From: a virus
Taxonomy: Duplodnaviria > Caudoviricetes
IMG/VR virus record: IMGVR_UViG_3300015203_000022
Span: 1-32,553 of that record
Reading direction: 5' to 3' (one strand)
DNA length: 32,553 bases
Shown: piece by piece, positions 5,003 through 32,553 of the stretch
Layout: every line of letters begins with the position of its first letter
Position numbering within the stretch: the first letter of the stretch is position 1
Program-made: the position numbers and the translations under genes
The notes under the pieces: generated by a model
What the model was told of the DNA's origin: nothing
Seen by the model: the letters and a program-made list of their open reading frames with translations, nothing else
The model's database searches: none

Positions 5003-6058
5003 TCACCAACTCCCGCCAGCAAACCCGTAAACATGGGCGCCGCTGACCGACTTGGCGCTCAGGAAGTCGTACCCGAGCACACAAATGCCCTGCTGGCCGA
5101 TCTGGCCGAGCGGCACCAGCGAGTAGAACCCGCTGAAGTCCATCGCCGCATCCTCGGAAATGTACATCGAGGAATACTTGCAGTTGCAGGCGTACATGTT
5201 GCCCTTGGGCACGAAATGGTCGGCGTACACCGGCACGCCCGACACCGTGAGGTTCGGGAAGCTCGACCGAACCGGCGTGTCCATCGTGTAGTTGTTGCCG
5301 GGGCTGATGCGGACCTGCTCGGTGCCGACGAACGAGGTGTTCAGCGTGGCGTGGTCGGCCGGGTTCATCACAATGAACGTGGGGGCCTCGCCGCCCGCGT
5401 TGTCGGTGATGTACTCGATCAGGGCGGCCATCGCCTGACGGTTCCAGCCGGTCGTCGCCGTGGTGTAGTTGGTGTTCCAGGTCGTGCCAGCGCCGGCATT
5501 GATGTACTGGCCCTGGAAATTGCTGTTCCCGGCGGCCAGCCGGTTGATGCCGCCGTACGTCGGCGCATTGGTGCCGTTGTCGAAGGCGTCCACGAAGCTG
5601 TTCGGGAACAGCGGGTTCGCCGTGTTGTTGGTGAACAGCAGCCGGGCGATGTTCTGGCGCGTGACGGCGTACGCATCGTTCATGCGCGCCTTCAGCAGCG
5701 AAATCTCGCGCTCTGTCGCTTGGAGGATGGTCTCGCCGAAGGGCAGCGGGATCGGCACGACCCAGTACGCGAGGTTGAACTGCGCGTTCTGGATGCCGGG
5801 CGTCACCACGGGCGAATTGAACCCGCCGCCATAGCCGGTGAACTGGCCCTGGACCATCGACTGCCCCTGCAAGGGGATCGTGACCTGATTGAGACCGCCG
5901 GCCGCGCGCTGCGCATTGCCCCAAAGGTAATACAATGAAGGACTTGCGAAGTACATCTGAACAAAAAGGCGAGGCACGAATGCACGCCTCGTTACGGAAG
6001 TGAGTTCATTATAAATACTTCCTGCCGGTGGAGCTACGCCAAGACCGGGGATCGGCAT
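5003..6058 (-). CDS. Major capsid protein
   Basis: 351 aa, located after the scaffold/portal. YGGINR motif, QFTGYGGGF and P-domain-like GVPVYADHFVP resemble HK97-fold capsids. Confidence 0.8.
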   Translation of the reverse strand: MPIPGLGVAPPAGSIYNELTSVTRRAFVPRLFVQMYFASPSLYYLWGNAQRAAGGLNQVTIPLQGQSMVQGQFTGYGGGFNSPVVTPGIQNAQFNLAYWVVPIPLPFGETILQATEREISLLKARMNDAYAVTRQNIARLLFTNNTANPLFPNSFVDAFDNGTNAPTYGGINRLAAGNSNFQGQYINAGAGTTWNTNYTTATTGWNRQAMAALIEYITDNAGGEAPTFIVMNPADHATLNTSFVGTEQVRISPGNNYTMDTPVRSSFPNLTVSGVPVYADHFVPKGNMYACNCKYSSMYISEDAAMDFSGFYSLVPLGQIGQQGICVLGYDFLSAKSVSGAHVYGFAGGSW

Positions 6059-6932
6059 GTATTTCGTCCTTTACTTAGACAGCAAACCGATGCAATGTGG
6101 CGTTCCCTTGGAAGGAAACCACACCGTGCCGATTCAGAAGAACTGCGAGAACTGCGGAGCCAGCTTTTCGGTCAGGCCGAGAGATGCCACGAGAAAATGC
6201 TGCACCATGGCGTGCCATCGAGCCTACGAAACGAAAAACGGCAGAATTGCTTCGCAAAAAGACCCGGTTAATTTTGTCTGCAAGGCTTGCGGCGGCCCGT
6301 TCACCATGAAACCGAGCTACCTCAAAGCCCTTCACGTGAAACACGGTAGAGACCCGCTCTACTGCTCGATCCCCTGCGCCTCTATTGGACGAAAGGCCGA
6401 CGCAGAACAGCGCGCTAAACAGAAATTTTCCTGCGCGCAATGTGGTGGGGAAATTCCCAACATACGACGCCCAAGCGGGTATATTAAACAAGGAACCCTT
6501 CTTTGCGGCAAGACGTGCAAAGACGCTCATCGACTTGCTGCGTGGCGCAAGCGTGCTGCCGGCATAGTTCCTCAACCAACCAAGGCTAGAAACGGCTACA
6601 TGAGGATGCACGTCATGGGTGATGACGGCTTGATGTCCCGCGAGGTTTTCGAGCACCGCTACGTCATGGAACAGCACCTCGGCCGGAAACTGCTTCCCAA
6701 CGAGACCGTCCACCACATCGACGGCGTTCGCCACAACAACGCCCTCAGCAACCTTGAGCTTTTCAGCAGCCGTCACGGCCCCGGCCAGCGTGTCACCGAC
6801 AAGGTTGCCTGGGCCATAGACATACTCCGGCAGTACCCGGAGTTCACCCGAGAAGCCGGCGTCGCCCTGGTGGGTGCGACCGAGTTGGAGCATTACCGAC
6901 GCGGGGCCGGGCTGTTGGTGCGGATGTCCTGA
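6057..6932 (+). CDS. HNH homing endonuclease with N-terminal CxxC zinc-finger repeats (true start may be GTG 6126)
   Basis: EHRYVMEQHLGRKLLPNETVHHIDGVRHNNALSNLEL is an HNH_3-type motif. Multiple CxxC...CS/T..C modules. GGAAGG upstream of GTG 6126. Confidence 0.85.
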   Translation: MYFVLYLDSKPMQCGVPLEGNHTVPIQKNCENCGASFSVRPRDATRKCCTMACHRAYETKNGRIASQKDPVNFVCKACGGPFTMKPSYLKALHVKHGRDPLYCSIPCASIGRKADAEQRAKQKFSCAQCGGEIPNIRRPSGYIKQGTLLCGKTCKDAHRLAAWRKRAAGIVPQPTKARNGYMRMHVMGDDGLMSREVFEHRYVMEQHLGRKLLPNETVHHIDGVRHNNALSNLELFSSRHGPGQRVTDKVAWAIDILRQYPEFTREAGVALVGATELEHYRRGAGLLVRMS

Positions 6933-11131: not shown

Positions 11132-13050
11132 CGGCGGCTTCTCCATGAGGCCCGCACGGCTTCCAGGCGGTTGTGTGAACGAACCCGCGCCTTGCCGGCC
11201 AGGAAGGTTTCCAACTGGCTGCCGTTGAACATAGCATACTGATCGGTGATCGTCATGCGGCGCTTGGCTTCCTCAAAAGAACGGGTCCGCTTGGTTGCCA
11301 TCAGCTTCGTGCGGATTTTCTCATCCCAATACCGGATGCCCATGGCCATCGCCATCACACGGTCGTCCTTGTTCACACCCTGGGCCTCGATACTGTCGCC
11401 CTCGCGCGTCACCGAACGCATTTCCTCAAGCGTGTCGAGCGAACGTATCCAGAGCATGCCGTTGTGCGTGAAGTCCCGCAGACGCTCCATGATGGCCACC
11501 TTCAGGGGGCCGGAGGTTTTCCAGTGCCATGAACTGCCAGGGGTCATGCTGTCCGACCGCTGATACAGGTAGTTGCGCGCGTTCTGGAAAATGTTCTGCA
11601 AGCCTTGCTCTTTGGCCTTGATGAGATAGTTGTGCTGAAGCTGGCGCTTCAACGACAACAATTCACGCCACGTCGCATCGCCCGGCCCGTTGATTTCGAG
11701 GATCAGATACACCTCGGACTTGTCGCCGCCATACCAGCCCAGCAGCGAAGCAAGCACCCATCCGAACTGGCGGCTGTCGATCAGGGGCCACGCATACTCG
11801 GCAACCTGTTCGATGCCATCCGAGTAGCAGCGGAGCACCTGCGCGCACGATCTGTCGCTCTTCTCGCTGTGGCCAAAGGCGGGATCGGCGGCGACGATGT
11901 AAACCGAGTCCTCGACCGGCTCCTGCCACACCTTGAGTTGCACGGAACGTGCGTTGGCGGCGGGCTGGACACTGAAATCGGTGAACTCGATGCCGGGATA
12001 GTAGCAGTAGGTTTTGTAATCACCGGAAACGTGCTTGGCGATTTGCTCTTTGAGGTTTTCGGGGGCGAAGAATGTCGCTCCGGTCATTTGATACGCGTCC
12101 GAATCGGTCCAGGGTTGTTCCTGGATACCCAAAACGTCGCCTTCAAACTCGGGATCGTTGTCTCCCTCGGCCTGCGCGCTCGGGTTCATCTTGCGCCTGA
12201 TCCAAGCAAGCTGTTCAGGCGTAATATCCCAATCGTATTTCTCTTTTACCTCCCGAATACGCAACATTTCTTTTTCGGACGGCGGAACAAGACCATACCG
12301 CTCGAAATCCGCGTAGCTCCGCTCGATTTTTTGATTGTCCTTGGCCCACCACCCGATGAACACGGTCTTTTTGTGTGCGGGATCGTTCAGAGCCTCAACC
12401 CACATGTCGTGACGCTGGTTATAGCCCCGCGCAGTGCTCTCCCAAATGTATAAACGGTTCGGAAAATCCTCGGCGAGCGAGTTCAGAAAGGCGGCGATGC
12501 CTTCCGGGTTGTCGATTGAACACATTTCGCTTACGTGACAAAAATTTACGCCGCTGGAACGGCCAAGAGTGCCGCTCGACCGTCCTTGACGAACGCCGCC
12601 AGACGCGAAATTTAGCGTGGAGCCGTTCGCAAGCTCCATCATGTTCCGGTTTTCGCGGACCATGCGGGGAAAAGAGAACTTTGTCGGAAGGTTTCGGGCC
12701 ATTCCGGTGATTTCGACGCGCGCTTCGTTAAGATGCGCCTCACTATCGAGAATCGCGTAGCCCTTCATGCCTGGGTGGATGCCACACCAGAACAGTGAAA
12801 GCGCCCTGACCACGGTGCTGATACCAAGCTGTCGGCTCTTGAGGATGTCGAAGTAGTGTATCTTGTCCTGAAGGCCGCTGAAGATGGCGTCGAGCGCGAT
12901 GAACTGCGCACGATACAGGCTGTCAGCCAGTTTGCACTGGCCGAGTTCCTTGGAGTTGATGGTGATTTGCCCGCAAAACTGAATGAAGCTCTCGCGGAAG
13001 ATAGCAGCCTTCTCTTTGGACCACCCAGCACCAACAAGAACGTCGCTCAC
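11128..13050 (-). CDS. terL: Terminase large subunit
   Basis: ILKSRQLGIST (Walker A), CHVSE (Walker B), IWESTA (motif III), RNase H-like VAADPAFG...DRS and KDDRVMA. GTG 13050 is coupled to the upstream stop. Confidence 0.9.
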   Translation of the reverse strand: MSDVLVGAGWSKEKAAIFRESFIQFCGQITINSKELGQCKLADSLYRAQFIALDAIFSGLQDKIHYFDILKSRQLGISTVVRALSLFWCGIHPGMKGYAILDSEAHLNEARVEITGMARNLPTKFSFPRMVRENRNMMELANGSTLNFASGGVRQGRSSGTLGRSSGVNFCHVSEMCSIDNPEGIAAFLNSLAEDFPNRLYIWESTARGYNQRHDMWVEALNDPAHKKTVFIGWWAKDNQKIERSYADFERYGLVPPSEKEMLRIREVKEKYDWDITPEQLAWIRRKMNPSAQAEGDNDPEFEGDVLGIQEQPWTDSDAYQMTGATFFAPENLKEQIAKHVSGDYKTYCYYPGIEFTDFSVQPAANARSVQLKVWQEPVEDSVYIVAADPAFGHSEKSDRSCAQVLRCYSDGIEQVAEYAWPLIDSRQFGWVLASLLGWYGGDKSEVYLILEINGPGDATWRELLSLKRQLQHNYLIKAKEQGLQNIFQNARNYLYQRSDSMTPGSSWHWKTSGPLKVAIMERLRDFTHNGMLWIRSLDTLEEMRSVTREGDSIEAQGVNKDDRVMAMAMGIRYWDEKIRTKLMATKRTRSFEEAKRRMTITDQYAMFNGSQLETFLAGKARVRSHNRLEAVRASWRSRR

Positions 13051-13682
13051 TCTTGGCCTTCCTTCCAAATGACGCCTGTTTTTATCTGGCTAACCAAACC
13101 CTGTGACACGCCAAACCTTCTAGCAAGCGCGGAGGTTCTCTCAACACGGGATGCGCGTCGAATCTCCCCGGCCACGCCCATGTCCAACTTCGCTTGTCGG
13201 GAGTTTCTCGACTGTTGCGCCTTGGTTGCCCAGCGAACATTGCCTCGACAATAGCCCTTGGAGTTGTCGATTCGATCCAGCGAATGACTTGGCGTTGGCC
13301 TCGGACCTATGTGCTCGTAGAACGCCAAGAATGATCCAAAAAACTCATCAGACACGGAAATTCCTCGGCCGCCATAATTCTTCCACGAGTCTAGTTTCGG
13401 GTTCGTGCATCGAGCGATCATAGCACACCACGCAATATGCTCCGGTGTCCGAGACATATTGTGGATAGCCATGTCGATTGCGCGGGCACTGGACACTTCA
13501 TCCCGCATACAACCGCAGGACTTCACCTCGCCCCCGCCTATGTTGTAGTGGTCAACCTCCGTTTCCTTGCCGCACTCGCACCGGCAAAGCCAGCGGCGAC
13601 GGTATCTGTTTATGCGAGGTAATTCATCAATTACAGTCAGGCGGTTGTAGCGACTGCCGATGGCGATTTCGTACTTGCTCAT
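13047..13682 (-). CDS. Free-standing HNH-type homing endonuclease
   Basis: WLCRCECG, KSCGC, YGGRGI, SLDRIDNSKGYCRGNVRWAT and a C-terminal HTH. Confidence 0.85.
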   Translation of the reverse strand: MSKYEIAIGSRYNRLTVIDELPRINRYRRRWLCRCECGKETEVDHYNIGGGEVKSCGCMRDEVSSARAIDMAIHNMSRTPEHIAWCAMIARCTNPKLDSWKNYGGRGISVSDEFFGSFLAFYEHIGPRPTPSHSLDRIDNSKGYCRGNVRWATKAQQSRNSRQAKLDMGVAGEIRRASRVERTSALARRFGVSQGLVSQIKTGVIWKEGQE

Positions 13683-13945: not shown

Positions 13946-14619
13946 TCCGACAATCCGTTCATGGCCAGGAAAGCCCGGATCGTAGCGAAATCAGCGTGGG
14001 TTATCCAGTCCAGACCGTACGGCGACATCGCCTTGATATTCTGCGGCGTCAACACCTCCTGATCGTTCCTGGCACCCCGCATCGGCAGCACCCACAGGTC
14101 ATCACCCGCCAACCTCTCCACCTTCCGCTCAGGCATGTCCTCGATCACGCTGCTGCGCCAGTCGTAGCGTTCAGCGAGCCGCGTGCTGGCCAGCCAGCGG
14201 GTGTGGGCGAAGAACAGCCCAACCTCGATGAAATTGTACTGCGACACCCAAGGCGCCGCGCACATCACGCTCGCCGCCTCCATGCGTTCGATGATCGGCA
14301 GTATCGGCTTGGCCAGGAGGACATCGGCCTCGACGCACACGGCGTAGTCGTAGTCGTGCTCCACGGCGTATTCCAAGCCCTTGCAGAACGCCCGCCCCCA
14401 CCCGTCCTGACCACCGTGGTTCAAGTGCCCGATGTTGTCGGGAAAACTGAAATAGAACTGCCCCCAATCCGGCGAAAGAGGCGATGCGCTGTCGATGAGC
14501 ATGAGGTCGCAGCCGGGGTTGAGTTGCCGAAGCAACTTGCCGGACAGGTTTGCGAGATACCGTGCGTGCTGGTTTGCACAGTACGTCGGGCCGAAGATCA
14601 GGACGCGCGGATCGCTCAC
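13942..14619 (-). CDS. Putative GT-A fold glycosyltransferase
   Basis: LMLIDSAS, DNIGH..G.GRAFCKGLEYA, YDYAVCVEADVLL (DxD-like). GTG 14619 overlaps the HNH stop. Confidence 0.65.
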   Translation of the reverse strand: MSDPRVLIFGPTYCANQHARYLANLSGKLLRQLNPGCDLMLIDSASPLSPDWGQFYFSFPDNIGHLNHGGQDGWGRAFCKGLEYAVEHDYDYAVCVEADVLLAKPILPIIERMEAASVMCAAPWVSQYNFIEVGLFFAHTRWLASTRLAERYDWRSSVIEDMPERKVERLAGDDLWVLPMRGARNDQEVLTPQNIKAMSPYGLDWITHADFATIRAFLAMNGLSE

Positions 14620-15245
14620 CTCAACCCTCTCCAAGTACGTCCGCGCTGGATTGCACATACCATTGAGGCCGTCACACCAAACATTCTACCCACAGCCGGT
14701 TGAGACATCTTCCATCTTAGGTCAAGTATTTTTCTCGCATCATCTTCAGTTAATTTATTGTTTCTTCTGTTCCTGGCTTGCTGATCGTAAGTCTCCCAAC
14801 GAATGTTTCCAGGCTCATATCCACGCTCGTTATCTATTCGTCCAACAGTCATTTTTGGTCCCGGACTTGGCCCTATTTCAGCGTAAAAAACCTCAAAATT
14901 GTTGATGAATTTTTCAGAAATAGTGATACCTCTTCCGCCATAATCTATATAGCCTTTTGTGTTGGTGTTTAAGCATCTTCTTTTCATCGCTGACCACGCC
15001 ACATACTCTTTTGTTACACCAGATCGCCTGCTTCCTCCATGTTTTGTGTTTGATTTAATAGTTGCAGGAAGTATTTGGCACCCACACGATCTGGACAAAC
15101 CTCTTATTAAATTTCCTTGAAAGACTATTCCATTTTTTCCGCACGCACACTCACAGTGCCATCTTGCACTAGATGTTTTTGACGCCTTGTTGGCTACTGT
15201 CCACATGCCAAAAACATCACCTACAGACACAAGCGGTGTTTTCAT
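14616..15245 (-). CDS. Free-standing HNH-type homing endonuclease (AT-rich)
   Basis: WHCECACG, RSCGC, YGGRGI, RIDNERGYEPGNIRW. Same family as 13047..13682 and visibly more AT-rich than its flanks. Confidence 0.85.
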   Translation of the reverse strand: MKTPLVSVGDVFGMWTVANKASKTSSARWHCECACGKNGIVFQGNLIRGLSRSCGCQILPATIKSNTKHGGSRRSGVTKEYVAWSAMKRRCLNTNTKGYIDYGGRGITISEKFINNFEVFYAEIGPSPGPKMTVGRIDNERGYEPGNIRWETYDQQARNRRNNKLTEDDARKILDLRWKMSQPAVGRMFGVTASMVCAIQRGRTWRGLR

Positions 15246-15460
15246 AGATAGCGATGCTCGAATCGGCTCTTGACATTCTGCGCGAGGAAACTCCCGACGC
15301 TCCACGCATTCATCGCCTGATCGGCAATCTCCTGTGGAACCCCGGAATAGATCGAGGTCTTGCCGCTGTCCCACTCGACGTACAACTCGTGCTTGTCGGT
15401 GTCGTAAGCCACGGTGTTGACGTGGCTGCTGAATACGCTTTTCGGGCCTAGAATGGTCAT
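15242..15460 (-). CDS. KTSC-domain protein
   Basis: SSHVNTVAYD...LYVEWDSG..Y.GVP......AWSVGSFL fits the KTSC signature. Confidence 0.85.
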   Translation of the reverse strand: MTILGPKSVFSSHVNTVAYDTDKHELYVEWDSGKTSIYSGVPQEIADQAMNAWSVGSFLAQNVKSRFEHRYL

Positions 15461-20208: not shown

Positions 20209-20590
20209 GCCTAGCTGAGCCGACCCCGACAGGGGTAGGTCTGCTAAGCGTAGCTTGCCATTAACATGAAAGAACACGCCTTCGTTCAGCGTCTAACCTT
20301 CTAAGCGGGGGTGGGTCTCCGGCTGTCGCCCCACCACGCTTTGTCAGTTCTGCGGAACAGGCTTGAGGACGCCAAGGACCGAGAGAGCCACCAAGTCCGA
20401 ACCTCCGTTCCGCTCCAAGGCCCCGGCACCAACGACCTCATCGGACGATCAGGCAGCCAGCCGGGCCTATCCATCGGCTGAAAGTGTGGGCGCGCGGCCC
20501 TTCAGGCTGTGCTGGGCGGGTTTTGAGGGCTTGGAGGGGTTCGGACACCTGCCCATGGCCTTGGAGGCGTCTAGCGGGCGCACAGGCGGG

Positions 20591-20728
20591 TTGGCCAGGG
20601 AAGGAAGGGCGCTGGGCCGCGAGGACTTGACGTTGTTGTGGGCGTCAAGTCGGTTTGGACAGGGAAGGAAGGGCGCTGGGCCGCGAGGACTTGACGTTGT
20701 TGTGGGCGTCAAGTCGGTTTGGCCAGGG
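20591..20728. repeat. 64-bp tandem duplication (2 copies plus 10 bp), each with a GACTTGACG/CGTCAAGTC palindrome
   Basis: 20591-20654 and 20655-20718 differ at one base. Confidence 0.9.
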
Positions 20729-21744: not shown

Positions 21745-21773
21745 TTGACTTAGCGGATAGCCTGTCCTACGTT
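21745..21773 (+). promoter_or_regulatory. sigma70-like early promoter heading the repeat-punctuated gene array
   Basis: TTGACT-N17-TACGTT, preceded by an AT-rich UP-like tract (about 21700-21740). Confidence 0.65.
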
Positions 21774-21869
21774 GTGTTCACCGGAGACGCTCACCGGACC
21801 AAGCGACGCAAGGACGGTGCAAGCCCGGACACAGTGCCAGATTGGTAGCCATAGCAAGAGGAAGCGAGA

Positions 21870-22001
21870 ATGAAAACACGCAAAGACGATACGCTCAAAA
21901 CAGAATGGACGTTCCGTAACGTTACCTATTATTTCACGTATCCAGTCAGCCGAGAATGGGCGCGCTGGTATCTGAGAGAGCGGGAAGGTTACGAACTTTG
22001 A
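21870..22001 (+). CDS. 43-aa ORF (MKTRKDDTLKTEWTF...), possibly a truncated 58-codon gene
   Basis: GAGGA RBS. After TGA 21999 the same frame stays open to the TGA inside repeat copy 1 (22044). Confidence 0.5.
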   Translation: MKTRKDDTLKTEWTFRNVTYYFTYPVSREWARWYLREREGYEL

Positions 22002-22042
22002 CTGATAGCCTTTGCGCTTGAAAATGCCTGCAAGACGATATC

Positions 22043-22098
22043 CTGACAATCTCTTAACCCGCCAAGGCGCAAGCCTTGGCGCGTTAGGTGACTGCCAG
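22043..22098 (+). repeat. Intergenic hairpin element, copy 1
   Basis: CTGACAATCTCTTAAC-CCGCCAAGGC-GCAA-GCCTTGGCGC-GTTAGGTGACTGCCAG. Confidence 0.95.
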
Positions 22099-22119
22099 AC
22101 AACAACAGGGGAATGAACG

Positions 22120-22338
22120 ATGGCCAAACTGGACAATCACGACAAGGATACGCTCGAAGCTATGATTGACGGCGCGAGCGTGTGCGAAGTGCTCGCGGCA
22201 CTCGCCGAAATCTGCGACGGCAAGGCTGAGCATGTCCTGACCAATTGGCAAGATAAAGCCTTGGCGCGGGAATGGACCGCGACAAGCAAAGCCTTGACCA
22301 AGGCCGAACGCGCAATAGAGGCTCGGCCGTACGCCTGA
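22120..22338 (+). CDS. Small hypothetical early protein
   Basis: AGGGGA RBS; stop lies inside repeat copy 2. Confidence 0.8.
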   Translation: MAKLDNHDKDTLEAMIDGASVCEVLAALAEICDGKAEHVLTNWQDKALAREWTATSKALTKAERAIEARPYA

Positions 22339-22390
22339 CAATCGCTTAACCCGCCAAGGCGCAAGCCTTGGCGCGTTAGGTGACTGCCAG
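22335..22390 (+). repeat. Intergenic hairpin element, copy 2
   Basis: 22334-22408 matches 22042-22116 at 74 of 75 nt. Confidence 0.95.
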
Positions 22391-22410
22391 ACAACAACAG
22401 GGGAATGACA

Positions 22411-22905
22411 ATGAGCAAAAGCTATCCTGACAGCGTGCCCGTGGCCTATGCGTCGAAATACCTGTCCGACGCATACAAGAGCGGGTGGAACCATGGCCAC
22501 GGCATCGCCTGTCACAATGTGCCGACACTTGGCGAGAAACTGTTCAGCGACTCGCTTGGTCGCGTGACGGTCGATGCCGACAATATCCGCGAAGTTCATG
22601 CCGATAACTGCCATGCGGCATCGGACAATTCGCGGTCCTACTCGCCATTTGAGTTCACGGCGAAAGAGTTCAACGATCATGGCGATGGAGGTTTGTTTGT
22701 AATTGAGTATGGCGAAGCGCCTATTGGACCGTTTTACAGTGCGGAAGAGGCTCGCGCCGAGCATGGCGAGGATGCCGAGGTGGAAGAACTGCCATCGGCG
22801 GAGGAACTGTGGGAAGCCTTCAAGGCCGGCACGGCCGACGCGATATCCGCCGATCTGGCGGAATACGATGATGCCGACTATGGCATTGAAGAGGATGACG
22901 CCTGA
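22411..22905 (+). CDS. Highly acidic hypothetical early protein
   Basis: AGGGGA RBS (ATG at 22411 or 22405); D/E-rich; stop lies inside copy 3. Confidence 0.8.
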   Translation: MSKSYPDSVPVAYASKYLSDAYKSGWNHGHGIACHNVPTLGEKLFSDSLGRVTVDADNIREVHADNCHAASDNSRSYSPFEFTAKEFNDHGDGGLFVIEYGEAPIGPFYSAEEARAEHGEDAEVEELPSAEELWEAFKAGTADAISADLAEYDDADYGIEEDDA

Positions 22906-22956
22906 CACTCGTTTAATCACCTAGGCCCGTGGCCTAGGTGACTAGATGACTGCCAG
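22902..22956 (+). repeat. Intergenic hairpin element, copy 3
   Basis: CTGACACTCGTTTAA-TCACCTAGGCC-CGT-GGCCTAGGTGA-CTAGATGACTGCCAG. Confidence 0.9.
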
Positions 22957-22976
22957 ACAACACAAGGGGAAAGAAC

Positions 22977-23300
22977 ATGGTTTTGTTTAGTGTGACTTAT
23001 GAGATTGTCACGCCTGAAAGTGCCGAGGATGGTGACGCGGCAGAGCGCGGCTTTGTGGAACGCCATTGCAGCCTGCGGGATGCAATAGACGCGGTGCAAT
23101 CCACGCGTACAAGCCGAGTCGGCGGAGTGGAGTGCATTGAGTGCGACAGTTGGCCGACTGTCGATCCGCGCTGGATCACGGTTTACAACGGTATGGAATA
23201 CGAGACTGGCGCGCAAGAGTCGCGTTCTCTGCACATTCCGGCCAGCGTGACTGCATCTAGCGCGCGGCGGATTGCGCGCCTTGTAGGTGCCAGACTGTGA
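22977..23300 (+). CDS. Hypothetical early protein (VTYEIVTPESAEDGDAAERGF)
   Basis: AAGGGGA RBS; ORF track. Confidence 0.8.
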   Translation: MVLFSVTYEIVTPESAEDGDAAERGFVERHCSLRDAIDAVQSTRTSRVGGVECIECDSWPTVDPRWITVYNGMEYETGAQESRSLHIPASVTASSARRIARLVGARL

Positions 23301-23398
23301 AGCTCGTATCACTCGCGTTCGTTGCTGCCGCCCTGGCCTACGTGGTGCCGCAGATCATGGCGAGCTTTGAGACTGCAACGCGCCTGCTGGCGCATTAG
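23297..23398 (+). CDS. 33-aa hydrophobic peptide MKLVSLAFVAAALAYVVPQIMASFETATRLLAH
   Basis: GTGA overlap and AGGTG RBS; fills the gap. Confidence 0.5.
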   Translation: MKLVSLAFVAAALAYVVPQIMASFETATRLLAH

Positions 23399-23411
23399 AA
23401 GGGGAAACAAG

Positions 23412-23588
23412 ATGGACGCCAAACTAGAATCCCGGCCGTTGACGTTGGAAGAAAAGCAAACTCGCGTCACAACGGCCGAACGCGAGCTTGATAAAGCTAG
23501 CAAGCTCGGCAAGCCGCTTTGGGCGTGGCGTTCTGCATATGCTGAACTGCTGAACGCGCGGTCTAGTTTGCGCTGGCACGACGCTTGA
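23412..23588 (+). CDS. Small hypothetical early protein (58 aa)
   Basis: AAGGGGA RBS before ATG 23412; stop lies inside copy 4. Confidence 0.7.
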   Translation: MDAKLESRPLTLEEKQTRVTTAERELDKASKLGKPLWAWRSAYAELLNARSSLRWHDA

Positions 23589-23640
23589 CAATCCCTTAAC
23601 CGGCCACGCGCGACAGTGTGGCCGGATAGGTGACTGCCAG
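23585..23640 (+). repeat. Intergenic hairpin element, copy 4
   Basis: TTGACAATCCCTTAA-CCGGCCACGC-GCGACA-GTGTGGCCGG-ATAGGTGACTGCCAG. Confidence 0.95.
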
Positions 23641-23658
23641 ACAACAAGGGGAAAGCAC

Positions 23659-23925
23659 ATGACTGAGACATATCCGATTGAGACATGCTCTGCGGCCGCG
23701 TTGCCGTTATTGATAGACGCGCGGCGCTACCTCTACGCCCTGGCCGCGCCGAAAGCATCGCGACTCGAAGAGCGGATTACCGCAATCCTGGCAGATATTA
23801 TCTACTTGTCCAGTGATGTTGTGGCGTACGAGAACCGTTGGGGTGGCGACAGCGAGTTCCGCGCGCTGGCCGGCAAACTCGCCGACGCCACGGCGGAATA
23901 TGACAGGATCGGGAGGGGAGAATAA
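23659..23925 (+). CDS. Small hypothetical early protein
   Basis: AAGGGGA RBS; ORF track. Confidence 0.75.
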   Translation: MTETYPIETCSAAALPLLIDARRYLYALAAPKASRLEERITAILADIIYLSSDVVAYENRWGGDSEFRALAGKLADATAEYDRIGRGE

Positions 23926-23979
23926 CCAAGCCTTAACCTCCGCCAGCGTAGGCTTCACACGTAACCAAGGGGAATAACT

Positions 23980-24519
23980 ATGCGCGTTATCACAAGCCTC
24001 CCGCCGAAGGGCGAAAACTTCGCAGCCTATCAGCCGAAGGGCGCGACAGAACCGCTTCACTTTGATGTCACGTCCACCCTGGAAAAAGCCGCCGACAAGC
24101 CCGGGGGTCAGGACAAGTGGACGGTCACGGTCACGCAACGCGAATATGGCAACGTCGCGACGTTCGCCTATTCCACCGGGACGGGATTCCGCGCGGTGCG
24201 CGACGGCTGGGCAACCAAGCCCCTGCCGTTCCGTGCTAGCGTTTACGATTGGGAACGCTCGTTTACGGTGCGGCCGGATGCGGCCAGCGTCCTGTGCTCT
24301 CTCGGCAGTGACTATCAGTGCGCCGCTGACATGCCGCGTGGCAGTGCAGAAGCGATGGACTATCTGCAAGCCGAGTTTGGCCATGACGGTAAGGCGTCGG
24401 ACTTGCTGCGCATGGTGGAGTCCTTGCGTGAGAATGCCGACAAGACAGACCGTCTGCTGCGCAATACCGGCATCATCGGCAGTGAGTTTGCCGAATGGTG
24501 CCACGAGCTTGACGCCTGA
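23980..24519 (+). CDS. Hypothetical early protein
   Basis: AAGGGGA RBS; stop lies inside copy 5. Confidence 0.8.
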   Translation: MRVITSLPPKGENFAAYQPKGATEPLHFDVTSTLEKAADKPGGQDKWTVTVTQREYGNVATFAYSTGTGFRAVRDGWATKPLPFRASVYDWERSFTVRPDAASVLCSLGSDYQCAADMPRGSAEAMDYLQAEFGHDGKASDLLRMVESLRENADKTDRLLRNTGIIGSEFAEWCHELDA

Positions 24520-24570
24520 CAATCGCTTAACCCGGTGGCCTATACGGCCGCCGGGATAGGTGACTGCCAG
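24516..24570 (+). repeat. Intergenic hairpin element, copy 5
   Basis: CTGACAATCGCTTAA-CCCGGTGGCC-TATAC-GGCCGCCGGG-ATAGGTGACTGCCAG. Confidence 0.95.
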
Positions 24571-24592
24571 ACTATCAACAAGGGGAACAACC

Positions 24593-25003
24593 ATGACCGC
24601 CGAACAACTAGCCGAAGTAATCGCCGCGCATTTGGAGTGGCTGAAAGACGCCACGAAAGGAAGGCGGGCCGACCTGAGCGGGGCCAACCTGCGCTGGGCC
24701 AACCTGCGCGAGGCCAACCTGCGCTGGGCCAACCTGCGCGGGGCCGACCTGAGCGAGGCCTACCTGCGCGGGGCCGACCTGCGCGGGGCCAACCTGAGCG
24801 AGGCCAACCTGCGCGGGGCCAAGGCTTGTGTTGATGCTGGCCAGGACCGGCGCGGCTATCGTTTCGTCGGTATCCACCACGCGGACGGGTGGCGCATCGC
24901 GGCAGGATGCCGTTGGTTCACGCTCGCCGAAGCCCGCGCGCATTGGGCGAGCAATCCCGACGCACTGCGGCGCGTTGAATTGATCGCCGCGTCTGAGCCG
25001 TAA
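24593..25003 (+). CDS. Pentapeptide-repeat protein
   Basis: About ten A(D/N)L(R/S)x repeats (15-bp units, about 24668-24820); C-terminal [13 protein letters not shown] domain. Confidence 0.9.
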
Positions 25004-25026: not shown

Positions 25027-26214
25027 ATGCTTACCATCAAAACCGCCAGCCTCCGCACCGCCCTGGCCTTGGTCAAGGGCGCAATCGAGGTGCGCAACAC
25101 CATCCCGATTCTCGCCTGCGTCAAGATCGCCACTGATGAAACCGGCGCGGTGTTCCTGACTGGCACGGATATGGAGGTCGCCTTGACCGTGCGCCTGGAC
25201 GCCCAGGCCACCGAAGCGTTCTCCGCTGTCATTCCGCACAAGCCGCTTTCCGCCCTGCTGAAAGGCAGCAAGGCCGAGGTGGTGGCGTTGGATGCGGAAG
25301 AGGTGCCGCCGCCCAAGGGCAAGGGCAAGCCCCTGGCCAAACCGACGTGGCGCGTTCACGTCAAGCTCGGTGGATCGGCGGTGACGCTGGCCGGGATGGA
25401 CGTGGCCGATTTTCCCGGATTGAAGAAAGGCGAACTGAAACACGCTTTCGACATGCCGGCGGCGGAACTCGGCGCGGCTTTCGGCGCGGTGCGTCACGCG
25501 ATTTCGACGGAACAGACGCGCTACTATTTGAACGGGATTTGCTTTGATACCTCGCGGCAGGATGGTCCCGACAGGATGGGCCGGCTTGCGTGCGTCACCA
25601 CCGACGGCCATCGACTCGGCAAGTACATGCTGGACCGGCCCGCCAGTGTCGGGCGGGATGCGCCGCGTATCGTCATCCCCGCCGGCACGGTGAAGCTGTT
25701 GCTGGCCGTGCTGAAAGGCCAGGGGCAGGTTCGCATGGAATGGTCCGACACGCGGGCGTGGTGGACGGTCGAGGGCGTCACCCTGGCCAGCAAGCTGATT
25801 GACGGGACGTTCCCGGAGTATGACCGCGCGATCCCTCACCACATTGAGAATCGGGTGGTGGTGGATGCGGTGCGGCTGGCCGAGGTCGCCGAGCGGGTGG
25901 CGTCGATTTCGCAGGATCGTTCGTCGCCGGTAAAGCTCTTTTTCAGCAAGGCGGGTGAGGTCGTGGTGTTCGCGAGCAATTCGGATGGCGCGGTGTCGGC
26001 CGAGACGTTGAACGGTGCCTGCGTCAACATGGTGTCGCCGTTCGACATGGAGATCGGCTTTCAGATGCGATACCTGAAAGACGCGCTCGAGCAATGCGGC
26101 CCGCTGGCCGTGATGATGCTGCAAGGCATGAGTGGGCCGGCGGTGTTCCATCCTGCGGACGATGATCCCGGTGAGCCGCGCGCTACGTTCGTCGTCATGC
26201 CCATGCGGATTTAG
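25027..26214 (+). CDS. dnaN: DNA polymerase III beta sliding clamp
   Basis: RNTIPILA, GTDME, AISTEQTRYYLNGI, TTDGHRL, SKLIDGTFPEY, IGFQMRYLKDAL, VVMPMRI. Confidence 0.95.
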   Translation: MLTIKTASLRTALALVKGAIEVRNTIPILACVKIATDETGAVFLTGTDMEVALTVRLDAQATEAFSAVIPHKPLSALLKGSKAEVVALDAEEVPPPKGKGKPLAKPTWRVHVKLGGSAVTLAGMDVADFPGLKKGELKHAFDMPAAELGAAFGAVRHAISTEQTRYYLNGICFDTSRQDGPDRMGRLACVTTDGHRLGKYMLDRPASVGRDAPRIVIPAGTVKLLLAVLKGQGQVRMEWSDTRAWWTVEGVTLASKLIDGTFPEYDRAIPHHIENRVVVDAVRLAEVAERVASISQDRSSPVKLFFSKAGEVVVFASNSDGAVSAETLNGACVNMVSPFDMEIGFQMRYLKDALEQCGPLAVMMLQGMSGPAVFHPADDDPGEPRATFVVMPMRI

Positions 26215-26568: not shown

Positions 26569-26798
26569 GCAAGTGCGTGGCCACCTCGCAATGCGCCGCC
26601 TATGCCTACTCGGACCGCCACGCCTGCCATCGCTGCGGCATGGCGTGGCTGGCCCGCGATCTTCACCCAGGCTGCATGGGTGGCGAACTTGACATCCCTA
26701 CGGTCGGGCAGGTGTTGGCGCGGGCTGCGTACGAAAACCCGCATCGGCTTGTCGTGGCTGCCAAACAAGGCATTGACAGCCTGCACAACCCCGCCTAG
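26565..26798 (+). CDS. Small Cys-rich hypothetical protein
   Basis: GGAG RBS; C...CHRC...C. Confidence 0.55.
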   Translation: MSKCVATSQCAAYAYSDRHACHRCGMAWLARDLHPGCMGGELDIPTVGQVLARAAYENPHRLVVAAKQGIDSLHNPA

Positions 26799-26801
26799 CC
26801 T
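26773..26801 (+). promoter_or_regulatory. sigma70-like promoter
   Basis: TTGACA-N17-TAGCCT. Confidence 0.6.
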
Positions 26802-28123: not shown

Positions 28124-28341
28124 GCACCGATCCCGAACGTGAACGCCAGTTGCGCTATTTCAAGCTCGCCGTCGAAAGCATGGGCGAATGCTTGACGGAC
28201 TTCGGCCGGCTGTTGCTGCAAGGCTGGCGGGAGGACAACGGCCACCTGCGCGGCAACATCGCGTTGGGGTTGGAGCGGACAGCGAGCTACCTGCGTGGCC
28301 AGCCTTTCGAGGCGAGGATTGACGGCAAGCACCTGTCCTGA
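28120..28341 (+). CDS. Hypothetical protein
   Basis: Coupled to neighbours. Confidence 0.55.
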   Translation: MSTDPERERQLRYFKLAVESMGECLTDFGRLLLQGWREDNGHLRGNIALGLERTASYLRGQPFEARIDGKHLS

Positions 28342-28841
28342 TGGTCGTGCTCGGGATCGACCCCGGCCTGTCAGGCGCGCTTGCCCTCTATACCAGCGAG
28401 TCGCGCCGGCTTGTCCAGATCGAGGCCATGCCGGTCTATCTCCGCAAGATCGGCAAGGCTGCGAAGCAACGCCATGTTGTCGATAGCGTCAAGCTGTTCG
28501 ACATGATGGAGGGCTTCGACGCCCTCGGTGTGGACCTTGTGGTGCTTGAACAGGTGGCGTCGAGGCCAGGGGACATGGGTGGCGTCACGGCCGGGTATGG
28601 CATGGGTTTGCTGGTGATGGCGTGCGTGGCCTTGAAGCTGCGCTTGGAGGTCGTCCAAGCTGCCGCGTGGAAGCGGGCGATGCGCGTGCCTGCTGACAAG
28701 AAAGAGGCCATACAACGGGCTTTGGCGTTGTTCCCGGAGCAACGTGGGATGTTCGTGCCTCCGGGTGGTCGGGTGCCGCACGATGGACGTGCGGAGGCGG
28801 GGATGCTGGCGATGTATGGTGGGGACCACCTCAAGGCATGA
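28341..28841 (+). CDS. ruvC: RuvC-like Holliday junction resolvase
   Basis: VLGIDPGLSGALA, VVLEQV, AAWKR, HDGRAEA. Confidence 0.85.
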   Translation: MVVLGIDPGLSGALALYTSESRRLVQIEAMPVYLRKIGKAAKQRHVVDSVKLFDMMEGFDALGVDLVVLEQVASRPGDMGGVTAGYGMGLLVMACVALKLRLEVVQAAAWKRAMRVPADKKEAIQRALALFPEQRGMFVPPGGRVPHDGRAEAGMLAMYGGDHLKA

Positions 28842-31244: not shown

Positions 31245-32553
31245 CCTCTTCCCCTATCAGGAAGCAGGCGCGCAGTTCATCGCCAGCCGTGAACGAAGCG
31301 GCCTGTTAGATGTTATGGGAATCGGTAAGTCCGCCCAAGCGATCCGCTCGGCCGATCTCCGGGGTGACAAGCGCATCATCGTCATCTGCCCCGCCCTGGC
31401 CCGCGAAATGTGGCGGCGTGAGTGGGCCAAGTTTTCCCACTGGCCACGGCGGATCGTGAAAGGCTTGACCATCCACGACTTGCTCGCGTGGCAGCGGGGT
31501 GTATTCGACATCATCACCTTGTCCTATGAAATGGCAACCAAGTTTCGCCCGCAGATTATGGACGCCTGCGAAGTGCTCGATCTTGTCATTATTGACGAAG
31601 GCCACGCGATCAAGGATGAAGATGCCAAGCGCACCAAAGCGGTGATCGGCCGGCATTCCGATGGCGTTGGTGGTATCGTCCAATGGGCGGCCAGGGCGGT
31701 GTGGATGACCGGCACGCCGGCCCCGAACGACAGCGCCGACATTTACACCTTCCTGAAATTCTGCCGCGCCACGGCCCTGACAAAGCGCCAGTTCATTGAC
31801 CGCTATTTCCACTCCCGGCAGAAAACCTATTCGGCGGCGCACACGCCCAAGGTCGATATGCTTCCCGAGCTTCACGCCATGATCGCCAACAACTCGATCC
31901 GCCGCACCCTCGATCAAGTCGGATTTCAGTTACCCCCGGTGTTCCTGACAACCGCCGTGGTGGATGGCGACACGGCTGCCATCGCTGAGTTCCTGTTCCA
32001 GTTTCCCGGCCTAGACACACGTATCCTCGACTCGCTTCGCGCCGGCAAAGGATTATCCGGCCTGGACGATGACCACATTGCCACATTGCGCCGGTTGATC
32101 GGAGAGGCCAAGGCGCTGCCCTACGCGCACATGTTGCTCGGCGAGCTTCAAGGTGGTTTGGACAAGATGGTGACGTTCGGCTTGCACAAGCGGGCGTTGA
32201 TCTCGGTGCGGGACTATCTGTGGCAGCACAGTATCAAGTGCGGCATCATCAACGGCGATACGCCTGAGAAGGATCGGCAATCCTACATCGAACAATTCCA
32301 GGCCGACGCGGATTTTCGGGTGTTGATCCTGAATATGCGCGCGGGCGGAACGGCGATCACCTTGACGGCTTCGGCGCACATAGACCTTCTTGAACAAGAT
32401 TGGTCTCCCGGAATGAATGCGCAGGCTTTGAAGCGGGTGCATCGCATCGGCCAGATGAGAAGCGTGCAAGCCCGGCTGTTCGGACTGGCGCGCTCGTTCG
32501 ATGAAACCGTGGCCGAGGTGGTGAGTGAGAAAACCGCCAGTGTGGCGATGATT
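31234..32553 (+). CDS. SNF2-family (SF2) helicase/ATPase, runs off the window at its 3' end
   Basis: Manual translation MPLSLFPYQEAG...DVMGIGKS...IIDEGH...MTGTP...GGTAITLT...WSPGMNAQALKRVHRIGQ. Confidence 0.9.
   Translation, partial: MPLSLFPYQEAGAQFIASRERSGLLDVMGIGKSAQAIRSADLRGDKRIIVICPALAREMWRREWAKFSHWPRRIVKGLTIHDLLAWQRGVFDIITLSYEMATKFRPQIMDACEVLDLVIIDEGHAIKDEDAKRTKAVIGRHSDGVGGIVQWAARAVWMTGTPAPNDSADIYTFLKFCRATALTKRQFIDRYFHSRQKTYSAAHTPKVDMLPELHAMIANNSIRRTLDQVGFQLPPVFLTTAVVDGDTAAIAEFLFQFPGLDTRILDSLRAGKGLSGLDDDHIATLRRLIGEAKALPYAHMLLGELQGGLDKMVTFGLHKRALISVRDYLWQHSIKCGIINGDTPEKDRQSYIEQFQADADFRVLILNMRAGGTAITLTASAHIDLLEQDWSPGMNAQALKRVHRIGQMRSVQARLFGLARSFDETVAEVVSEKTASVAMI

Follow-up and report, generated by a model that had tools for sequence, protein, structure and literature searches.

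Five hairpin elements in the early arm of a tailed-phage fragment

The window analyzed here is the full viral record IMGVR_UViG_3300015203_000022 (G000; 32,553 nt, 51% complete), a tailed-phage fragment whose minus strand carries genes for terminase, portal, major capsid and an SU10-type adaptor, and whose plus strand carries an early or replication arm. Five copies of a hairpin element with both arms are located on the plus strand at 22044..22097, 22336..22389, 22903..22955, 23586..23639 and 24517..24569; no further copy with both arms was found in the 32.5-kb window. Successive elements are spaced by 292, 567, 683 and 931 nt, and the units between them hold 1, 1, 3 and 2 genes. Each copy forms one long hairpin of 53 to 54 nt with TGAC at its left end and GCCA at its right end, and the ribosome site AGGGGA follows 7-11 nt after each hairpin behind an A/C-rich linker. 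In copies 2-5, the TGA closes open reading frames (ORFs) of 72, 166, 58 and 179 codons ending YA, DA, DA and DA, respectively; in copy 1, it is not a stop codon. A first-pass annotation of this DNA had described five such copies with these spacings, upper stems that differ and still pair, the stop-codon overlap in copies 2-5, the AGGGGA ribosome site and one to three genes per unit; all of these points were confirmed.

Fold z-scores for copies 1-5 were -6.4, -7.3, -6.9, -4.5 and -6.5, and none of 200 shuffles folded as well. The lower stem reads U-A, G-C, A.C, C-G, A-U, mismatch, U-A, C-G in all five copies and contains no bulge; pairing is symmetrical with 1x1 mismatches and without extrahelical bases. 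The center is a covarying stem of 9-11 bp with a loop. Four different upper stems occur among the five copies, and two-sided compensatory changes were found in 9 of 23 consensus pairs. Between the two arms, the differences fall on the same fixed positions in every copy. Element 1 (54 nt) carries a GCAA tetraloop and is followed by AGGGGA at 22107; element 2 differs from it at only one of 75 nt and has its AGGGGA at 22399. Element 3 (53 nt; AGGGGA at 22965) has a different upper stem and a C-G to U-A change in the lower stem, element 4 (54 nt; AGGGGA at 23647) a G.U pair in the upper stem, and element 5 (53 nt; AGGGGA at 24581) a U.G pair there. Rfam contained no match to the element.

The genes of the arm, all on the plus strand, are mostly short. 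Upstream of element 1 lies g0 (21870..22001), a 43-amino-acid ORF of no known family with its stop 42 nt before the element. The product of g1 (22120..22338, 72 amino acids) belongs to no known family, and its stop is the first triplet of element 2. Gene g2 (22405..22905, 166 amino acids) may start at the ATG at 22411; its function is not known, and homologues were found in 43 viral loci. Gene g3 (22977..23300, 107 amino acids) encodes a widespread phage protein of no known function with 329 homologues at E ≤ 1e-3; both g2 and g3 are also present in early regions of many phages, with differing neighbors. The stop of g3 is overlapped by g3b (23297..23398), a hydrophobic ORF of 33 amino acids, followed by g4 (23412..23588, 58 amino acids, no known family), which ends in the first triplet of element 4. 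Behind g5 (23659..23925, 88 amino acids, no known family) comes a plain junction with a ribosome site and then g6 (23980..24519, 179 amino acids, PHROG 4273 of unknown function), the stop of which is the first triplet of element 5. The array is followed by g7 (24593..25003), encoding a pentapeptide-repeat protein (PF00805), and by a DNA polymerase III beta-clamp homologue (25027..26214) on the same strand with no element in front. The hairpin is missing from four other junctions of the arm, namely g3-g3b, g3b-g4, g5-g6 and g7-clamp, and hence from both sides of g3b.

Atlas, Pfam, PHROGs and NCBIfam provided no informative family or function for g0-g6. The units had been proposed to be anti-host gene cassettes; none of the cassette proteins carries an anti-host annotation. 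They had also been placed behind one promoter. A candidate sigma70-type early promoter pattern (TTGACT-17-TACGTT) at 21745..21773 on the plus strand makes this plausible by eye, but it fails a consensus scan and is one of two such patterns on this strand. The second pattern, TTGACA-17-TAGCCT at 26773-26801, is located further down the early arm.

Related elements occur in early arms of other phages

Searches of viral and of metagenome contigs for the exact window-type element each gave 0 matches. The right arm alone gave five matches, none a hairpin of this kind, and a looser window-like pattern gave 113 single matches, a number near chance by a rough estimate and with none in an array. No close relative of the five-copy array was found in these searches. 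One sequencing run, a soil metagenome, contains the array and may be the source of the window; no RNA dataset is listed as containing it.

Loci were then fetched by protein, 43 for g2 and 92 for g3, and a TGAC...GCCA hairpin descriptor revealed related elements beside the g2 and g3 homologues. A pattern derived from locus L259 matched elements in eight viral contigs. A covariance model, proposed as a check in the first-pass annotation, was built from 37 copies and detected 62 sense-strand elements in 20 phage contigs, the window included; 30 of these 62 are training sequences. Antisense echoes, the duplicate loci L212, L213 and L265, and matches with E above 0.11 were left out before counting (one was kept at 0.11). 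The largest arrays contain 16 copies (G033) and 10 copies (G039), each in one early arm. Only 14 of the 92 g3 loci have a sense match at E ≤ 0.06; therefore, most g3 carriers lack the element. Weak model matches need care, as the arms alone can score 18-30 bits; the evidence for loci L179, L211, L222 and L224 is the hairpin, its orientation, the ribosome site and, L222 excepted, the presence of several copies.

Among 58 distinct copies, position 1 is U-A in 54 and A-U in 3, position 2 is G-C in 54 and A-U in 4, position 3 is A.C in 56, position 4 is C-G in 57, and position 6 is mostly a mismatch. The TGAC/GCCA ends were a selection rule, so that their invariance in the training set is built in; compensated variants that keep A.C, TAAC/GCTA in L200 and AGAC/GCCT in L179, were found by the model afterwards. 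Subject to the caveats of the method, pairing reached 71.9% as compared to 52.5% in shuffles and 27-39% in slid registers. Members of the class span 44-54 nt, most of them 46-48 nt, with about 21-25 stem positions. Positions 11-12 are unpaired in 79% and 75% of the class (contig-weighted) and form a central loop.

The distribution of the element was compared with that of the virion genes. The capsid protein has 114 relatives among viral contigs, of which the 80 kept are 61-80% identical; complete capsid relatives measure 62-67 kb, and no close cultured relative was found (35%). The capsid relatives share the virion module with the window, not the early genes. No element was detected in 12 capsid-relative records (best E 0.013) or in 19 more, i.e. 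in 0 of 31 overall. Furthermore, the carriers represented by the window, G033 and G034/G036/G037 have no common core gene at E ≤ 1e-6; common to them are only accessory, HNH or RuvC-like proteins. The element thus follows the accessory-gene pool and not the virion lineage. Five regions of cultured phages with a g3 homologue contained no convincing element. Arms of the G033 type gave 34 single matches and no array in 185,579 prokaryote genomes; the six alignments shown of these 34 lacked a regular upper stem, though matches score 18-30 bits. The beta-clamp used as bait yielded no close relative (among the candidates scored, no other protein reached E ≤ 1e-60) and thus no host call.

Some further observations concern these relatives. 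At L259:4304-4326 (G033), the g3 stop is followed by a 7-codon ORF that reaches into the TGA of an element and is perhaps the remnant of a deleted gene. Three regions without the element, L006:4330-7800, G016:C1 about 58000-58700 and G014:C1 about 57600-58700, repeat sigma70-like promoter units between early genes; in L006, g3 and g2 homologues lie within this setting. A capsid relative carries arrays resembling clustered regularly interspaced short palindromic repeats (CRISPR) at L156:18803-19370 and in L157, with a 36-nt repeat and 29-30-nt spacers; the blocks, separated by about 3.7 kb, correspond to about 37800-38250 and, near the record end, about 42000-42500 on G001:C1. One spacer has a 29/29 match within the same record (L155:11068-11096), another matches two other capsid relatives (L162, L168) at 93-96%. 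These matches suggest a phage-borne CRISPR-like array that targets related phages.

The window itself contains three HNH endonuclease genes in the virion module (6057-6932, 13047-13682 and 14616-15374), the first of which adjoins the capsid gene on the strand opposite to its neighbors. Two tandem 64-nt copies, 91% identical, occupy an apparently non-coding gap between the divergent arms at 20576-20703 and are possibly related to an origin or to packaging. Collagen-like, repeat-rich coding stretches are found on the minus strand at both record ends (1-900 and about 31300-31900).

The elements probably act as messenger RNA structures

Strand bias and gene context were used to distinguish an RNA from a DNA structure. 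Within the eight pairs under the loop, the 58 distinct elements contain 430 Watson-Crick, 17 G.U and 5 A.C pairs on the sense strand. A freshwater phage family carrying g2 has junction hairpins of similar geometry and different sequence; 72 distinct hairpins of this family contain 95 G.U and 4 A.C pairs, and GNRA loops number 70 on the sense strand as compared to 1 on the antisense strand. Among the 59 elements starting with a stop triplet, 42 close an ORF of 50 or more codons with that triplet, as compared to 3 and 8 in the other two frames; the remaining 17, copy 1 included, close no such ORF. The sense bias of G.U pairs and tetraloops together with the stop-codon context thus points to an mRNA structure.

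In the freshwater family (L007-L048), stop-codon hairpins of 50-52 nt with GNRA loops are found at the early junctions. The order of its genes varies greatly, and genes begin after a G-poor leader without a Shine-Dalgarno motif. Most loci of this family also carry one TGACC...GGCCA copy.

An integron-type recombination site is not supported

The first-pass annotation had suggested integron-like sites for capturing or shuffling gene cassettes. Elements of this kind, integron-like or otherwise site-specific, would be read as single-stranded DNA. A gene with a downstream hairpin does resemble a cassette, and the elements share with attC the imperfect palindrome after a gene, the same orientation throughout an array, a variable tip and a more stable bottom strand (PMC5027507, PMC9892861); functional attC sites are reported from virulent phages (PMC9892861). 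All five copies as RNA, and four of five as DNA, have a more stable fold on the bottom strand than on the top, because the conserved A.C pairs become G.T on the bottom strand. No other observation favors a single-stranded DNA site as strongly; yet the wobble pairs of the variable stem and the tetraloops favor the top strand.

The defining features of attC are given as an AAC/GTT core, extrahelical bases and an unpaired spacer (PMC5027507), and real attC sites of virulent phages as having G|TTRRRY junctions (PMC9892861). In contrast, the elements lack such junctions, a conserved AAC/GTT core and an unpaired central spacer between binding boxes, and their symmetrical pairing leaves no base extrahelical. 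AAC/GTT occurs only inside copies 1-2, 38 nt across, whereas copies 3-5 read CTAGAT, ATAGGT and ATAGGT. The attC likeness proposed earlier thus holds for this inner pair but not for the outer GCCTGAC...GCCAGAC, as RYYYAAC...GTTRRRY does not bound the elements, which end in TGAC/GCCA.

A tyrosine recombinase (PF00589) is absent from the window, as the first-pass annotation had stated, and a wider search for one found none in 17 carrier records (with element or freshwater hairpins; 10 at least 90% complete). The sole match among 18 records was G032, which has a tyrosine integrase and no element. Serine recombinase (PF00239) and Y1 transposase/HUH (PF01797) domains were found in 0 of 9 records. 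These negatives are to be read with a window only 51% complete and with a host IntI that could act in trans. The lack of any array among the matches in prokaryote genomes also speaks against this reading.

As no close relative of the array was found, gene movement was analyzed using stand-ins, namely G034/G038 and the g2 family. Comparison of G034 with G038 revealed one homology block that starts exactly at the first base of an element, as a recombination site would predict, but the next break falls in a leader. Across 32 of the 43 g2 loci, the genes are arranged in very different orders. In this 32-locus family, according to automatic gene calls, 30 distinct new neighbors were counted in 86 hairpin junctions and 29 in 83 plain junctions; the expectation that order changes exactly at element boundaries was therefore not supported, change being no commoner at hairpins. 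Hairpins with near-identical upper stems and a differing neighbor differed downstream in 37 pairs, upstream in 3 and on both sides in 11; hence, the hairpin tends to travel with the upstream gene, though not strictly. A cassette would behave similarly, and in the freshwater family the arms likewise track the upstream gene, with identities of 0.88 and 0.81 where the downstream gene alone is different.

Depth in the source run is 11.7 for the contig that lies between copies 1 and 2 (window 22087-22374), as compared to 27.5 and 20.8 for the flanks and 39.1 for the repeat. This would fit a loss of g1 from part of the population through recombination between these near-identical copies, although a short contig between two hairpins may be under-sequenced and the source run is not independent. 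No joint or circle was found among the contigs of this run, and assembled contigs cannot show one between near-identical repeats. Ordinary recombination between the promoter early stem-loop (PeSL) repeats of T4-type phages is reported to shuffle genes and to make circles (PMC2839356). Ordinary homologous recombination between repeats explains both the element-linked gene swaps and the depth hint; shuffling is likely a side effect and not the work of a dedicated system. Taken together, we consider a site-specific recombination site highly improbable. The window also encodes a RuvC-like resolvase (28341-28841), which could resolve recombination between repeats.

Comparison with known regulatory repeats

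The first-pass annotation had offered repeated regulatory cassettes analogous to PeSL elements as its other explanation. PeSLs, known from RB49 and phi1, are likewise repeated stem-loop units in a hyperplastic early region that extend from stop codon to ribosome site, and recombination of their copies can shuffle genes and make mini-circles (PMC2839356). The left arm of the present elements contains YTGACA, which is -35-box-like, and the repeated sigma70-like promoters of the element-free L006 and G016 would suit such promoter-terminator cassettes. A PeSL, however, is defined as a sigma70 promoter plus a terminating stem-loop (PMC2839356). No -10 box is present at 16-18 nt, neither a promoter nor a terminator was called at any element, and only 0-2 T occur in the 8 nt after each hairpin, so that a U-tract is missing. 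Thus, the elements are not PeSL promoters and probably not intrinsic terminators; the general idea of a repeated regulatory cassette is supported, but its PeSL form is very improbable.

Start-associated sequences (SAS) and their extended forms (ESAS) of cluster K mycobacteriophages offer another comparison. ESAS are described as imperfect inverted repeats of about 17 bp with a variable center, located upstream of a conserved ribosome-site motif; both precede non-structural genes, as the present elements do, and their proposed function is putative (PMC3203893). The spacer of ESAS is mostly 4-13 bp, whereas here a 9-11-bp covarying stem with a loop is found; ESAS are linked to a 13-bp SAS, here the A/C linker and AGGGGA follow. 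By this published description of 17-bp repeats, a 4-13-bp spacer and a 13-bp SAS, the elements fall outside ESAS, although arm length is comparable; the comparison covered arm length, spacer and downstream motif.

As might be proposed for ESAS, the arms could be half-sites of a dimeric regulator and the element a double-stranded DNA operator. The imperfect inverted arms, about 17 bp long and followed by a fixed ribosome site like those of ESAS (PMC3203893), are in line with this. The spacer of an operator should be neutral, but here it pairs with compensatory changes and shows the sense-strand G.U and GNRA bias; moreover, the arms differ from each other at the same fixed positions, and no regulator is common to the carriers. 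We therefore regard an operator as quite unlikely.

Four other candidates were dropped upon inspection only: a sigma54 promoter (no -12 GC), a tRNA-like RNase P substrate (stem too long), a selenocysteine or read-through signal (copy 2 has an in-frame stop in its right arm) and a self-cleaving ribozyme (simple hairpin).

The elements may be RNase III-type processing sites of the early message

For the role of this RNA structure, we give about an even chance to host RNase III-type processing or stabilizing sites in the early message, as in T7. The elements would act as folded RNA within an early polycistronic message, presumably transcribed as one unit. Each forms an irregular helix of about 21-25 positions, whose start coincides with the upstream stop codon or directly follows it and whose end immediately precedes the unstructured A/C-rich linker and the ribosome site. 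A host nuclease of the RNase III type, specific for double strands, would cut in or near the central mismatch or loop, like at the five T7 early sites; a ribosome paused at the stop codon might control this cutting. Cutting would give the upstream message a protected 3' end, and the downstream message would keep its own ribosome site behind a short leader. Identical copies could recombine as a by-product, deleting or swapping the genes between them.

This proposal builds on observed properties, i.e. the repeats, the hairpin, the sense bias, the stop-codon and ribosome-site context and the spread across phages. RNase III is described as taking about 22 bp, with loops at the target giving single cuts that leave a protective 3' hairpin, and five RNase III signals are reported for T7 early RNA (PMC3867540, PMC6212723). 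A signal of the T7 type calls for a sense-strand helix of about 22 bp with at least 11 bp on one side of the cut (PMC3867540, PMC1540722); the 44-54-nt hairpins, with their 21-25 or so stem positions and their sense bias, agree with this. The T7 site R1.1, located between genes 1.0 and 1.1, consists of a 49-nt stem interrupted by an internal loop (PMC8708148, PMC6121014), and an alphaproteobacterial RNase III cuts it (PMC6121014). T7 thus resembles the window: in both, a single early polycistronic region holds a number of intergenic hairpins of about 50 nt, each of which contains an internal loop or mismatch and precedes a ribosome site. It differs in that here the arms of the copies are near-identical, the base motif is common to unrelated phages, the stop codon is the first pair, and cleavage is predicted. 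Positions 7 and 9 are A-U-rich, with G-C or C-G pairs in only 7% each, which matches the E. coli rule for positions 2 and 4 of the proximal box (PMC1540722). A phage RNase III gene was found in 0 of 9 records and no common phage factor was detected among the window, G033 and G034/G036/G037 carriers, which suggests a host reader.

RNase III sites have also been described in phage SPO1.

Several observations weigh against processing. One is the greater stability of the bottom strand. The best register, chosen post hoc, fits only two of the four proximal-box positions by E. coli rules, as a mismatch predominates at position 6 and C-G at position 8. The central mismatch of the window copies is at position 14-16 instead of 11-12, and these copies are longer than most members. 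Finally, base conservation (A.C at position 3 in 56 of 58 copies, partly built in by selection) exceeds what RNase III is stated to need, its sites being described as without strong consensus in PMC3867540 and PMC8708148.

Alternatively, the sense RNA could be a signal that is bound and not cut. A conserved host factor or the terminating ribosome would recognize the U-A/G-C/A.C/C-G base, and binding would protect the message, block Rho, or couple termination to re-initiation at the next gene. The sense-strand and stop-codon evidence also fits this. In addition, A.C is kept while its neighbors change in a compensated manner in L200 and L179, suggesting recognition of shape, and blocking the 5' arm raised the predicted openness of the ribosome site in four of five copies. 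However, no candidate factor was found, and the hairpin does not include the ribosome site; the change predicted is modest (from 0.35-0.54 to 0.66-0.88) and reversed in copy 5. Also against a bound signal, 17 of 59 elements, copy 1 included, begin with a triplet that closes no ORF of 50 or more codons. We consider a bound signal possible, if somewhat unlikely.

Implications for early gene arrangement in phages

The architecture as such is already known from T7 sites, ESAS and PeSLs; no description of the sequence-structure family itself was found in Rfam or in keyword literature searches, the coverage of which does not extend to subscription journals. The integron proposal, the more surprising one, is not supported. 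A more far-reaching idea, which we hold to be unlikely, is that the base is a specific signal addressed to a widely conserved host factor which is not simply RNase III, and that unrelated phages with different hosts make use of this signal. A ribosome on the stop codon would melt the signal and thereby tie processing or protection of each early gene's message to its translation, and the unit of stop codon, RNA signal and next ribosome site would recombine without a phage recombinase, forming a self-formatting slot that makes incoming genes ready for expression.

The element provides a short substrate for a direct test and bears on what ESAS-like repeats do. The covariance model marks gene boundaries and early accessory regions in phages with unannotated genes. 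If the elements are processing sites, they would constitute a recognizable RNA family absent from Rfam, and T7-style punctuation of early messages would be far commoner among uncultured phages than the few textbook cases suggest.

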